64,000 bases of DNA, taken from positions 4,585-68,584 of the forward strand of contig CAMMWP010000004.1 of the NCBI GenBank assembly GCA_946500615.1. Direction: 5' to 3'. This stretch comes from an uncultured Clostridium sp. GTDB taxonomy: Bacteria; Bacillota; Clostridia; TANB77; CAG-508. This document shows positions 2,108 to 5,100 of this stretch, piece by piece. The position numbers were made by a program, and so were the translations under genes. The first letter of the stretch is position 1, and every line of letters begins with the position of its first letter. The notes under the pieces are model-generated. The model saw only the letters and a program-made list of their open reading frames with translations, had not been told where the DNA came from and did not search any database.

Positions 2108-5100
2108 ATGAAAATAAAAGGGATATGTATTTTAATTGCAACATTTATTATAGTAATCTTTCATCAATTACCAGTATTAGCAGTAGAAAATTTTGAAGCA
2201 GATTTAGTAACAGACAGTGTAGAAGTAAAAAAAGGTGAAGAAATAAATGTTACACTAAACTTCAAAAATTATCAAGAAATTAACAAAGGAATAAACAGTT
2301 ATCAAGCAAGATTAGAATATGACACAACTATATTTGAAACAGTAGACACAACAGATTTTCAAATGTTAAATGCATGGGAAGAATTTTTATATAATCCTGA
2401 AAACCAAGAATTTATAGCAATAAAAAAAGCAGGAAGTAAATCTGATGAGGCAATCCTTACACTAACATTAACAGCAAAACAAGATATTACACCTCAAGAA
2501 ACCATTATAAAAGTAAAAGACATTGTTGCTTCAGAAGGAAAAAAAGATATATACATTGATGAAGCACAAGTGGCTATTCAAGTAATAAAAGAACAAGATA
2601 CACAAAAACCAGGAAACATAGAAGGGGATAAGCCAAATTCAGGAGATAATAATCCAAATGGTGAAAGTGGAAACATAAAAGATGAAACAAGTAACAATGG
2701 GGGAATAGCAACAGATAAATTACCATATACAGGCTCAAGCATATTAACATCTTGGTTGCTAATAGTCATTGAAATACTTGTTATCATTGCAATAATTACC
2801 TATATAAAAATGAAAAAAATTGACAAAAAAATAAATAAAAAAGGAAAAATATTATTCACAATTCTAGCAACAGGAATCATAACAGCACAACTAGTAGGAA
2901 CAATTTATGCCGTAACACAAAAAGGTGAACTAAATGACGATGGAGCAATTAACTATAAAGATGTTTCATTATTAGAGCAACATTTAATCGCATTAAATAC
3001 GTTACCAGAAGAGAAACAACCAAATGCAGACATGAATGCAGACAGGAAACTAACAGTAACAGATTTAACACTTTTAGTACAAAAAATAGAAAATACTTTA
3101 GATTATGAGGTAGACATAACATCTAATATGGATAATTATTATCCACAAAAAAACGAAGAAATAGAATTAAAGTTTTCTGCATTTGTATCATATGATGCGA
3201 AAATAGAAGAGGTAACTATTAATGGACAAATGTATCCAGTAGAAAACGAACCAAATACAACCAATTATGTTGTAAAAGTAAAAGCACAAGCTAGTTCTGG
3301 AATACAAGAATTCAAATTTACAAAAGCAAAATTGAATGTGGGAAAAGAAGTTCAGATAGACTATATAGAAAAAATAGATGTCTTAAAAGAAAAGCCAAGT
3401 ATTCAAAACTATCAAGTAACAGAAATCATAGAAGAGGCAAAATTAAAAGTATCTTTTGATATAAAAGATATGGATAATAGTTTAACAAGTGCAAAAATCC
3501 AACTATTTGAAGAAAACAAGGATACTCCAATAAAAGAAGAAATAGCCAAAATTGGAAATAATGAATTTGTATTAGACTTAGAGGAAAATAAAACATATAT
3601 TTTAAATATATACATAAGTTATAATTTAGATACAGATCAACTAACAGAACACGAACAAGATAATACAGGTATTAGCTTAGAAACAAAAGAATTAAAACTA
3701 AATATAGATTATAAATTTGAGCTTAGTAATATAAAACTATATAATGAAGAAGGACAAGAAGTAGATCAATATAGTAAAAATGAGCCAATAATTGTAGGAT
3801 TCACAAGTACAAATGCAACGAAATTTTTACCAGAATATGTAGTGATAAATGGAAAAAAATATGAAGTTACAAGTACTGAAAATAATACATACAAAGTAAA
3901 AATAGATGGAATAGATCAAACTGGAGAATATGAATTAAAAGTAGAAGAAGTCATTTTAGAAAATGGAAAAACATTCACAATAGAAAATAATCATACAATA
4001 AATGTTAAAATACAGAAAGAAAAACCAGAAGTACAAAATGTTAAGATAGAAGAGCAAGAAAGTGGAATAAAAGTTGTATTTGATATAAAAGATACAGATA
4101 ATACTATATTAACAAAAAAAGTAGTTATCAAAAATGCAAATGGAGACAAAATTTTTGAAAAAGAAATACAAAATAATACATTTAATGAAATTTGTCAAAT
4201 ACCAAATGATTTAACAACAAAATATATAATAGAAGTGATTGCAGATTATGACATAACAACAGATAATTCTGCATTACAAACAAATCAAGTACTTTATAGC
4301 CAAGAGATAACAGCAAAAGAAAGAGCAGTAATTGGAAATGTGACACTATCTAAAGTACAATTAGAAAAAAATGAAAATGTAACAATAAACTATGAAATTA
4401 CAACAAACAAAACAAGTAATATAGAAAAATTAACAGTTAATAACATAGAAGCGATTGTAACAAAAGGCACTAATGGCATATATTCTGTAACAATACCAGT
4501 TGGAGATATTGCAGGAATTCAAGAAGTGAAATTGTCAAAAATTATTTTTGATGATGGAACGCAAATTAGTACAAGTAATCTTCAAGAAATAGAAGTGCTA
4601 AAATCTGTACCAACAGTAGAAAATTATCAAGCAGAAGATGATTATGATAATACAAAAGTGAACTTTGATTTTGAGTTAAAAGATGAAGATAATAGTTTTA
4701 TATCAGGATATGTACAACTTGTAACATTAGATAATCAAGTAAAAGAAAAACAAGAAATCACATCTACTGGAACACAACATTTTTCATTACCAGTACAAGA
4801 AAAAGAAGAATATACGTTCCAAGTAGTTGTAACCTATGCTAGAAATGAAGACAAAGCACAAATGATAACAGACAAAGTATTACTAGAAAAACCAATTCAG
4901 ATGATTGTAGACTATGAATTAAAAATTACGAATATCCAAACTAAAAATCAAAATTCAGAAACAAAATATTTTGATAGAGATGAGAATATACAAGTCGTAT
5001 TTACAAGTACAAATGCAACAAAATTCATTCCAGAGAAAGTACAAATAAATGGGAAACAATATGGACTAACCAATTTAGGAAATAACCAATATAAAACGGT

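Follow-up and report, generated by a model that had tools for sequence, protein, structure and literature searches.

Sortase can attach only the part of a protein upstream of an LPXTG motif, which in M26 metallopeptidases is N-terminal. Members of the family are described as linked or attached to the surface by sortase A or by their LPXTG motif (PMC7695701, PMC6206940), and a srtA knockout is depleted of ZmpB and IgA1 protease (PMC13604702). The streptococcal and Gemella enzymes ZmpA, ZmpB, ZmpC and ZmpD are giant secreted proteins with a signal peptide, an N-terminal LPXTG, two hydrophobic segments, repeats and an HExxH motif (PMC3518915), all of which also holds for the protein reported here. 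In the accepted model (PMC3518915), a second signal-peptidase site follows the second hydrophobic segment; PMC9637739 states that the mature pneumococcal IgA1 protease begins 56 residues downstream of LPXTG. The streptococcal M26 enzymes differ from the protein reported here: only a short segment precedes LPXTG, a G5 domain follows the hairpin of hydrophobic segments, and there is neither a cohesin nor a dockerin.

Ruminococcus flavefaciens ScaE is a sortase-anchored single-cohesin scaffoldin that holds dockerin-bearing proteins on the wall. OlpA/OlpC of C. thermocellum and the toxin-complex cohesins of Clostridium perfringens act as one-cohesin receptors on the surface for non-cellulolytic enzymes, and their anchors are SLH domains or part of glycoside hydrolases; we know of none that a sorting signal joins to its own client. 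In the Limousia mucinolysome, the stalked cohesin of cSca5 is followed by LPXTG, a hydrophobic segment and a charged tail, and is predicted to capture dockerin enzymes, including peptidases (PMC12997984). For both ScaE and cSca5, anchor and enzymes are separate genes and one anchor serves many dockerin proteins, whereas here the anchor and a single client share one translation product, with a predicted internal signal peptide between them. The ingredients (an N-terminal M26 anchor and cohesin-dockerin display) are known, and what is new is their combination in a widespread family. We found no published description of the fused cohesin/dockerin-M26 architecture in the open-access literature, although such an absence is no proof.

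One gene for a predicted receptor and an enzyme

A single uninterrupted ORF of 2792 aa, translated without an in-frame stop, occupies positions 2108-10486 (+, with the stop codon) of the window (the whole 64-kb stretch of DNA analysed). We read it as a fused precursor of a cohesin stub and a dockerin-M26 peptidase, an architecture that also occurs at 60 other loci. Its Shine-Dalgarno sequence (AGGAG, 2095-2099, +) lies 8 nt upstream of the ATG. Promoter-like hexamers (2047-2075) and a terminator-like hairpin belonging to the upstream unit (1914-1945) are consensus matches only. The order within the ORF is signal peptide, cohesin, LPYTG, hydrophobic helix, Lys-rich loop, second helix ending in IYA, Dockerin_1, repeats and an M26 metallopeptidase with HETAH; all features described below are on the + strand.

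The first-pass annotation had listed these elements up to the dockerin, and sequence reading and Pfam recovered each of them where it had been placed, in a single frame with zero stops. The HMM searches that it proposed (Cohesin, Dockerin_1, Peptidase_M26_N/C) all scored above the Pfam cutoffs. Its streptococcal precedent also holds, with a signal peptide, LPXTG, two hydrophobic segments and a second signal-peptidase site described in PMC3518915. Judged from its sequence, the gene, which comes from a Clostridium-like gut bacterium, encodes a cell-anchored cohesin receptor and a dockerin-headed M26 enzyme, joined by a predicted sorting signal and then a predicted second signal peptide.

The cohesin stub and its predicted anchor

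The N-terminal signal peptide (aa 1-25, 2108-2182) was recognised by eye from its n-h-c layout and VLA motif, with the putative site S1 between MKIKGICILIATFIIVIFHQLPVLA and VE. Pfam, AF2, Foldseek and invariant columns all identify the cohesin module that follows (aa ~28-165, 2189-2602). Pfam Cohesin (PF00963) matches aa 34-146 with 44.9-48.4 bits against a cutoff of 24.1, and AF2 models the module as a beta-sandwich with a pLDDT of ~95. Its best Foldseek matches are type I cohesins, OlpC/OlpA among them (4dh2, E 3.7e-9, probability 1.00); OlpA/OlpC and the C. perfringens toxin-complex cohesins together account for the best structural matches (4dh2, 3ul4, 2vo8, 2jh2). Foldseek compares PDB chains singly, so these matches bear on the cohesin fold and not on docking, and the cohesin/dockerin sequence identity to them is only 14-20%. 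In the homologue alignment, the cohesin motif S142-E-G144-K-x-D147 is invariant across the family.

A polar low-complexity linker (aa 166-204, 2603-2719), predicted to be disordered (AF2 pLDDT <50 at construct residues 140-185), differs in length and sequence between homologues, and we propose that it forms the wall-spanning stalk of the stub. Next come the LPYTG sortase motif (aa 205-209, 2720-2734), the 24-residue hydrophobic helix 1 (aa 210-233, 2735-2806; also a helix in AF2) and the positively charged, Lys-rich loop KMKKIDKKINKKGK (aa 234-247, 2807-2848), which is the order of a sortase substrate. By these features aa 205-247 is a textbook, if predicted, sorting signal; the LPXTG-protein C-terminal model gives a weak match of 20 bits, below its cutoff. 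Helix 1 is read as the hydrophobic portion of the signal and as a stop-transfer segment. The loop is read as cytoplasmic, supplying both the sorting signal's charged tail and the n-region of the putative internal signal peptide. As a whole, aa 1-247 reads like a complete cohesin protein with a sortase anchor.

Of the 57 fused homologues, 33 have a sortase-like motif (LPxTG, IPxTG, SPxTG, NVKTG/SVQTG) directly against helix 1. No recognisable sortase motif is present in the other 24 of 57 (~40%), and in some relatives the stub is probably membrane- rather than wall-anchored. The loops of the fused homologues carry a mean of 5.8 K/R against 1.6 D/E. No sortase gene was found in the 64-kb window, nor, L054 excepted, up to 10 kb from a fused locus.

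A putative internal signal peptide and the dockerin

Helix 2 (aa 248-268, 2849-2911) ends in IYA268, with the putative signal peptidase I site S2 before V269 identified from homologue motifs. It has the layout of a Sec signal peptide, with the K-rich loop, a 21-residue helix and I-Y-A before V, matching the (-3,-1) rule. Such a (-3,-1) site is found at the end of helix 2 in 56/57 fused homologues, and a [VIT][YFW][AG] motif lies 3-7 residues ahead of the dockerin in 48/58. The giant peptidases of the split-gene relatives described below have G[VIM]IYA in their own signal peptides, 4-6 residues ahead of the dockerin (17/17), and fused and split forms alike have G-x-[IV]-Y-A ending 3-7 residues ahead of the dockerin KGE. 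Since the signal peptide of the split giants ends in the same way before the same dockerin type, helix 2 is the counterpart of the body's signal peptide. We read it as an internal signal peptide with putative cleavage after IYA268. This predicted cut lies 60 residues downstream of LPXTG, compared with 56 for the mature start in pneumococcal IgA1 protease (PMC9637739).

The dockerin (aa 272-332, 2921-3103) has two Ca-binding repeats of the form E/D-x-N-x-D...D and is identified by Pfam, PDB matches and AF2. Dockerin_1 matches aa 275-327 with 35-38 bits (cutoff 22.9), C. thermocellum CelD-type dockerins in the PDB are matched with E 4e-7 (best entries 4fl4, 4cj0 and 1clc), and the AF2 pLDDT is ~90. 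Both repeats have N/D at loop positions 3, 5 and 12; at position 1 the first repeat has Glu and the second Asp. Y283 and T316-V-T-D-L320 are invariant in the family.

An AF2 single-chain model of aa 27-340 reached a pTM of 0.66, with 57 residues below pLDDT 50. By our own estimate a pTM of ~0.44 would be expected if the 133-residue cohesin alone counted, and the higher value suggests that the cohesin is placed confidently against the dockerin/hairpin unit, a docking deduced from the pTM alone. The intended specificity control, adaptor P0038, yielded an uninformative model (pLDDT 38, pTM 0.26) from an alignment of effectively one sequence. Cohesin and dockerin distances correlate with r = 0.76, which carries no weight for binding since it is expected of co-inherited modules. 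Covariation was unusable for mapping the interface because the putative recognition residues of both modules are almost invariant (~78 sequences).

The M26 body

The dockerin is followed by a spacer of divergent beta-rich repeat modules (aa ~333-1101, 3104-5410), with a weak DUF7862 match (24.5 bits, below cutoff) and no internal repeats at E<1e-3 by self-BLAST. Pfam then identifies a Peptidase_M26_N region (aa 1102-1338; 143 bits, cutoff 27.7) and a Glug match at the GLUG motif (aa 1348-1373), together spanning 5411-6226. The catalytic Peptidase_M26_C region (aa ~1662-2254, 7091-8869) scores 100 bits against a cutoff of 22 when scanned alone and aligns to the IgA1 proteases 6xjb and 7uvk; the match of the catalytic part to the solved S. 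pneumoniae enzyme (6xjb) has E 1.8e-52 over ~1110 aa. Its zinc site is HETAH (aa 2040-2044, nt 8225-8239), aligned with HEMTH in the solved Gemella IgA1 protease, and the GRRSG and downstream Glu that follow are conserved. The C-terminal extension (8870-10483) contains three further Peptidase_M26_N-like/GLUG-like stretches (91 bits).

The NCBIfam models for ZmpA-D score 175, 163, 150 and 90 bits, far under their cutoffs of 3000, indicating a separate M26 lineage outside the named groups ZmpA, ZmpB, ZmpC and ZmpD. From family and habitat, our guess is that the substrate is likely a host mucosal glycoprotein (e.g. IgA, mucin).

Fused homologues in other genomes

We found the same fused N-terminus in 60 other species-level genomes, mostly from uncultured gut Clostridia or 'Bacilli', in ORFs of 2000-3460 aa with 26-67% identity and the conserved order SP-Coh-linker-TM1-K/R loop-TM2-Doc-M26. 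No exact copy of the 2792-aa protein was found in public assemblies, and the genome of the window is not among the GTDB representatives, of which the closest (L001) is 64-67% identical over the N-terminal region and has a syntenic BclA_C-like neighbour. Among the 61 N-termini, Pfam detects Dockerin_1 in 60 and Cohesin in 47. With family-specific HMMs, 79 ORFs exceed the cohesin threshold and 79 the dockerin threshold, and 78 loci have both. An exhaustive search of a 1.8-billion-protein library returned 228 representative clusters at E<=1e-30, many of them proteins of 2000-6700 aa with a contiguous match over the first ~430 residues, and the uninterrupted fused order is present in dozens of 50%-identity clusters of that library. 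Because the layout recurs uninterrupted in 60 giant ORFs from different species-level genomes, it is neither chance nor a frameshift artefact. The earlier reading as a single gene is thus upheld, the same fusion being kept in 60 independent assemblies.

Searches up to 10 kb from each fused locus and across the 64-kb window found no further cohesin or dockerin. The window therefore holds no multi-cohesin scaffoldin of the cellulosome or mucinolysome kind: it has one cohesin and one dockerin, both in the M26 ORF, with a peptidase as the client. The true partners of these modules could be further cohesins or dockerins encoded elsewhere in the genome. This counts against the docking explanation given below, as do the 24 of 57 fused homologues with no recognisable sortase motif, the lack of a sortase gene near the fused loci other than L054, and the chance that fusion or fission happened only once.

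Split-gene relatives

Another 17 genomes contain a split version, in which two neighbouring genes encode the cohesin and the enzyme headed by the dockerin separately. In all 17 loci, a ~320-aa secreted adaptor (SP-Coh-X-Doc) carries a cohesin of the window's type, scoring 163-178 bits on the fused-family cohesin HMM, and directly downstream (17/17) lies a giant M26 peptidase with HExxH and its own signal peptide. The dockerin of this giant, at aa ~40-115, is of the fused-family type (97-110 bits), whereas the adaptor's own dockerin is of a different type (20-40 bits). Free-standing cohesin proteins ending in sorting signals also occur at split loci (LPKAG-TM-KK at L057/L061 and MPKTG-TM-KKK at L080), and the L080 gene adjoins a sortase gene.

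Split and fused forms share the cohesin type, the dockerin type, the M26 body and the way in which the signal peptide ends ahead of the dockerin. However, the split form consists of three or more polypeptides instead of one, and tethers its cohesin via a second, different dockerin rather than via LPXTG or a membrane helix. The window's cohesin and dockerin types are always found together, either fused or in neighbouring genes. The earlier suggestion that the two halves of the polypeptide could re-associate thus gains strong comparative support from these split genes.

Proposed cutting apart and re-docking

As related bacteria encode both parts as neighbouring genes, export of the protein probably involves its cutting into two pieces, which then re-join non-covalently at the cell surface. 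The order of the modules and its conservation, the split equivalents and the enzyme's M26 identity are direct observations; the steps that follow are inferred. The first signal peptide would export the cohesin, helix 1 would halt transfer with the Lys-rich loop remaining in the cytoplasm, and helix 2 would re-start export of the ~2520-aa body. Sortase, as suggested by the motif and the streptococcal precedent, would cut between T and G of LPYTG and attach the cohesin with its ~40-aa stalk to peptidoglycan; where relatives lack a sortase motif, helix 1 would hold the stub in the membrane. Signal peptidase I would cut after IYA268, leaving the body with a new N-terminus three residues ahead of the dockerin. 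The dockerin could then bind the anchored cohesin in a Ca2+-dependent manner, consistent with the comparative and AF2 results, and the giant peptidase would be displayed non-covalently on the producing cell or its sister cells. We consider a cut-apart precursor whose stub and body re-dock on the cell surface to be the best explanation, and give this whole reading a probability of roughly 0.6.

Alternatively, helices 1 and 2 may form an uncleaved hairpin that anchors the whole protein, with the cohesin and dockerin not binding each other but each recruiting different partners encoded elsewhere: the cohesin would serve other dockerin proteins as a scaffoldin with one site, and the dockerin would tie the enzyme to another scaffoldin. 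The hairpin is indeed the only universally conserved anchor, ~40% of homologues having no recognisable sortase motif. Multi-partner networks also exist in this group, given the further cohesin and dockerin proteins at split loci such as L065 and L080, and the genome beyond the 64-kb window could encode partners. However, 56/57 homologues retain a (-3,-1) motif of signal-peptidase type where helix 2 ends, this end is homologous to the split giants' N-terminal signal peptide, and processing downstream of the hairpin is reported for the pneumococcal homologue (PMC9637739). The constant pairing of cohesin and dockerin types, in fused or adjacent genes, and the failure to find a second cohesin or dockerin in the 64-kb window or up to 10 kb from the fused loci also argue against separate partners, and we regard this alternative as unlikely.

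The modules may also associate without any receptor role, each cohesin binding a dockerin on a different molecule, or on its own uncleaved chain, to form oligomers, a surface lattice or a stalk clamp, with no retention of released enzyme. The same module pairing and AF2 result would be expected here as in the re-docking model, and once cleaved any body could bind any stub, so that binding in trans is expected anyway. This seems rather improbable given the split loci, where the cohesin sits on a small protein with its own, different dockerin beside sortase-anchored cohesin proteins, a layout of a retention chain and not of a lattice. Finally, a sequencing or assembly error that erased a stop near nt 2810-2850, merging an anchored-cohesin gene with a secreted dockerin-peptidase gene, would fit a junction lying exactly where a gene boundary would fall and the anchor gene plus giant gene arrangements at L057 and L061, but is effectively refuted by the uninterrupted recurrence of the fusion in 60 independently assembled genomes and many metagenomic proteins, and by the same fused layout of streptococcal M26 enzymes in finished genomes.

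Implications and a possible origin of the fusion

Re-docking of stub and body would give an explicit, testable answer to the surface retention of M26 enzymes: the anchored piece is a cohesin, and the enzyme starts with the matching dockerin. The split-gene versions provide ready-made natural controls. Cohesin-dockerin display would also be extended from the degradation of fibre and mucin glycans to giant host-directed peptidases, in a family that spans at least ~77 uncultured Firmicute species living in the guts of humans, mice, chickens and other hosts. Within one polypeptide, a sorting signal and a signal peptide would work back-to-back, which points to a compact way of achieving non-covalent display on the surface of Gram-positive bacteria with a single gene.

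More tentatively, the N-terminal LPXTG of all M26 peptidases, including pneumococcal IgA1 protease and ZmpB/C/D, might be the scar of a sortase-anchored receptor gene fused to the enzyme gene that followed it. The chain would be cut twice, by sortase and signal peptidase, and the stub and body re-assembled non-covalently, with the short streptococcal stub binding its body through an unrecognised interface. We see this as possible but doubtful; if true, the cohesin-dockerin versions and their split relatives would be the readable form of such 'cut-and-dock' display.

In an NJ tree of the M26 body, the split forms fall into two groups, while the NJ tree of the cohesin places them all in one clade. 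As these trees are unsupported and incongruent, we claim one or more fusion or fission events, and perhaps a single one, given that the cohesin tree groups all split forms together.

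Organisation of the giant gene

The giant gene is a single uninterrupted ORF of 2792 codons (2108-10486, + strand) with AGGAG in Shine-Dalgarno position 8 nt upstream; promoter-like hexamers precede it, and a terminator-like hairpin ends the upstream unit. All the N-terminal parts listed in the first-pass annotation lie in one frame where it had placed them, with no stop between them. Read from the sequence, these are a signal peptide (aa 1-25), the motif LPYTG (aa 205-209, nt 2720-2734), a first helix (aa 210-233), a Lys-rich loop (aa 234-247) and a second helix (aa 248-268, ending in IYA), all on the + strand. 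The cohesin (aa ~28-165, + strand; Pfam, AlphaFold2 and structural matches) precedes LPYTG, and the dockerin (aa 272-332, + strand; Pfam, PDB matches and AlphaFold2) follows helix 2. When the giant's N-terminus was scanned alone, both modules scored above the curated Pfam thresholds (Cohesin 44.9-48.4 bits, cutoff 24.1; Dockerin_1 35-38 bits, cutoff 22.9), confirming how they had been called. The dockerin also matched solved C. thermocellum type I dockerins (E 4e-7), and an AlphaFold2 model of aa 27-340 had a pLDDT of ~95 in the cohesin and ~90 in the dockerin. In structure, the cohesin model came closest to type I cohesins from OlpC and OlpA, surface-anchoring proteins of C. thermocellum, and to C. 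perfringens cohesins.

The body contains Peptidase_M26_N, GLUG and Peptidase_M26_C domains, in keeping with the M26-type peptidase first proposed. Alignment to IgA1 proteases located a HETAH zinc motif (aa 2040-2044, + strand), after which a GRRSG segment and a downstream Glu also line up, and the solved S. pneumoniae IgA1 protease aligned with the giant over ~1110 residues (E 1.8e-52). Judged by its sequence, the body is a real M26 peptidase. Every sequence feature of family M26 that we tested was present, and the giant fell outside the named groups: ZmpA, ZmpB and ZmpC are about equally far from it and ZmpD further, with scores far under all four cutoffs, which points to an M26 lineage of its own outside ZmpA-D.

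Distribution and variation of the fused architecture

With the first 340 residues as query, a search yielded a dozen diverged metagenomic proteins whose parts follow the same order. A GTDB scan (one genome per species) returned 79 loci, in 60 of which the same N-terminus heads an ORF free of stops; complete ORFs are mostly 2000-3460 aa, and some of the 60 are shortened by contig ends or earlier stops. Nearly every carrier is an uncultured MAG from the gut of human, mouse, chicken or another host, and their labels are Clostridium, Clostridia, Mediterraneibacter, Lachnoclostridium, 'Bacilli' or 'Tenericutes'. Of 61 N-termini scanned with Pfam, 60 had Dockerin_1 and 47 had Cohesin, and HMMs built from the family found both in essentially all loci. 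Searched exhaustively with HMMER, a set of 1.84 billion representatives yielded 228 clusters at E<=1e-30, many of them 2000-6700 aa long with one continuous match over the first ~430 residues. Since stop-free fused ORFs recur across genomes, a frameshift or hidden stop can be excluded for the family and appears very unlikely at the window locus. The nearest relative, L001 from an uncultured Clostridium sp. MAG, is 64-67% identical in the N-terminal region, and its downstream gene is syntenic.

Some representatives of 4000-6700 aa (P0083, P0087, P0091, P0098, P0099, P0140, P0157 and P0173) share the N-terminal cohesin-to-dockerin stretch, with up to 22 matched stretches; here the anchoring head may be joined to other, still larger bodies. 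In another library protein, P0002 (562 aa), the first ~480 residues of a fused giant abut the last ~80 residues of the C-terminus, a junction that stems either from a natural internal deletion or from collapse of the assembly.

Both helices are universal among the fused homologues, as is the K/R-rich loop between them (mean 5.8 K/R vs 1.6 D/E). Helix 2 ends in a small/aliphatic-x-small motif in 56 of 57 homologues (the (-3,-1) rule being scored by script rather than by a trained predictor), mostly [VIT]-[YFW]-[AG], 3-7 residues ahead of the invariant K-G-E/D with which the dockerin begins. A sortase-type motif stands right before helix 1 in 33/57, in the forms LPxTG, IPxTG, SPxTG and NVKTG/SVQTG, and lineages labelled Bacilli or Tenericutes have I-K-K-T-T-like remnants at this position. 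The SPxTG and NVKTG/SVQTG forms resemble those that the Clostridioides difficile sortase recognises. Given the canonical LPYTG, the window's stub is probably anchored to the wall by sortase; elsewhere in the family, it can apparently be left membrane-anchored.

The motif also varies by lineage across the fused homologues (L005-L079): LPxTG/IPxTG occurs in Clostridium-like MAGs, SPxTG in L021, L036 and L038, and NVKTG/SVQTG in Mediterraneibacter- and Lachnoclostridium-like MAGs (the variants IQTG/VQTG of L056 and L063 being uncounted), decaying to I-K-K-T-T under the Bacilli and Tenericutes labels. This shift may track sortase presence and type.

Split-gene relatives

In place of the fused gene, 17 further loci have a two-gene version. 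Gene A encodes a secreted adaptor of ~320 aa, comprising a window-type cohesin (family HMM score 163-178 bits vs 170 for the window cohesin; ~45% identity), a small X module and, last, a dockerin that is not of the window type (20-40 bits). Directly downstream in 17/17 cases, gene C encodes a giant (HExxH at ~1850-1920 in complete ORFs) whose own N-terminal signal peptide closes with G-[VIM]-I-Y-A; a window-type dockerin (97-110 bits) follows 4-6 residues further on. A third kind of cohesin protein, small and ending in a classical C-terminal sorting signal, is encoded in some split loci as well: LPKAG, helix and KK tail in L057 and L061, and MPKTG, helix and KKK in L080, where the cluster also includes a sortase gene and a further surface protein with a dockerin.

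Taken together, the gene content of the split systems suggests a short retention chain that runs from a wall-anchored cohesin through the adaptor to the dockerin-headed peptidase, and the fused protein appears to follow the same logic in one polypeptide. Its aa 1-247 have all the parts of a sortase-anchored cohesin protein (signal peptide, cohesin, stalk, LPYTG, helix, charged tail), and aa ~234-2792 all those of a pre-enzyme (charged n-region, hydrophobic core, cleavage site between IYA and V, dockerin, body), with the Lys-rich loop predicted to serve both halves. This fusion/fission pattern is 'Rosetta stone' evidence for cooperation between the two module types, and it indicates that helix 2 acts as a signal peptide and not as a lasting anchor. 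Neighbour-joining trees, built without support values, differ on the number of fusion/fission events.

The L080 cluster (4168-14108; also L081) runs from the 342-aa cohesin protein through the sortase, an SH3_3/Big_2/Dockerin_1 protein, a cadherin-like protein and the Coh-X-Doc adaptor to the giant dockerin-M26 protein, and looks like a small dedicated surface-display operon. The LPKAG proteins of L057 (10955-11692) and L061 (9896-10648 and 11931-12674) are ~250 aa long, with divergent cohesins (Pfam 18-19 bits, below the cutoff; family HMM 33-40 bits). One of them sits between the adaptor and giant genes, 64 bp before the giant ORF, where read-through would recreate the fused layout.

Proposed mechanism

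We favour, with a probability of roughly 60%, the first-pass proposal that the two parts of one polypeptide re-join. The cohesin would be exported, helix 1 would stop transfer and helix 2 would restart export; sortase would cut LPYTG between T and G and link the stub to the wall, signal peptidase would cut after A268, and the freed ~2520-aa body would dock on the stub in a Ca-dependent manner. An independent but indirect hint in the same direction comes from the AlphaFold2 model of the 314-residue construct (aa 27-340), which has a pTM of 0.66, with 57 residues at pLDDT <50; compared with our own estimate of ~0.44 for the cohesin alone, this is high for the construct, which suggests that the model places the cohesin confidently relative to the dockerin/hairpin unit.

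Streptococcal precedent fits the re-joining model: in the accepted M26 model, signal peptidase has a second site, located past the second hydrophobic segment (PMC3518915), the mature pneumococcal enzyme is stated to start 56 residues after LPXTG (PMC9637739), compared with 60 in the window protein, and ZmpB and IgA1 protease are depleted in a srtA mutant (PMC13604702). The N-terminal LPXTG, double helix and second cleavage site are a known M26 signature, which the window protein shares. Sortase-anchored single-cohesin receptors for dockerin-bearing enzymes are exemplified by ScaE of R. flavefaciens. Another is cSca5 of the Limousia mucinolysome (PMC12997984). The first-pass annotation knew of no pair split in this way, and we likewise found no description in open-access papers of a cohesin and presumptive dockerin flanking an internal sorting signal/signal peptide in one gene, nor any link there between M26 peptidases and cohesin-dockerin modules.

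Alternatively, the hairpin could be an uncleaved anchor, with the cohesin and dockerin each engaging other partners. Related clusters do have extra cohesin and dockerin proteins, and the genome beyond the window leaves further room for partners; we consider this alternative unlikely. Slightly less likely again is that the same interaction has a lattice or clamp role. An assembly artefact is extremely improbable: the single-gene reading is upheld by the same stop-free order in 60 other loci, which effectively rules out read error for the family.

Re-joining of stub and body would offer a testable explanation of how an enzyme after an N-terminal LPXTG stays cell-associated, with the split genes as natural controls, in a family of giant surface peptidases widespread in uncultured gut Firmicutes. 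More tentatively, the N-terminal anchor of all M26 enzymes could be the scar of a receptor-enzyme gene fusion working by cut-and-dock, an idea we hold as possible but somewhat doubtful.

Genomic surroundings

The window has a G+C content of 29% and otherwise encodes housekeeping functions of a spore-forming Firmicute (pheST, ffh, rimM, trmD, fab genes and valS among them). In these 64 kb we found no sortase and no further cohesin or dockerin. A large serine recombinase (Resolvase, Recombinase and Zn_ribbon_recom; 2-1570, + strand) stops ~540 bp short of the giant gene, and in L031, L033, L034, L058, L070 and L077 a homologous recombinase is likewise found less than 10 kb from a giant or adaptor gene; this could point to a mobile element, or to a DNA-inversion switch that controls these surface genes. 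A second GLUG-repeat protein (525 aa; 47248-48825, - strand; Glug 71.8 bits), kin of the giant's GLUG/M26_N part, adjoins an ORF with a phage-integrase SAM-like domain (46074-46541, + strand). Directly downstream of the giant is a small BclA_C-like protein (10615-11157, + strand; 34 bits, narrowly missing the cutoff of 38), whose homologue in L001 is 85% identical and occupies the same place, making the gene pair syntenic in the closest relative.
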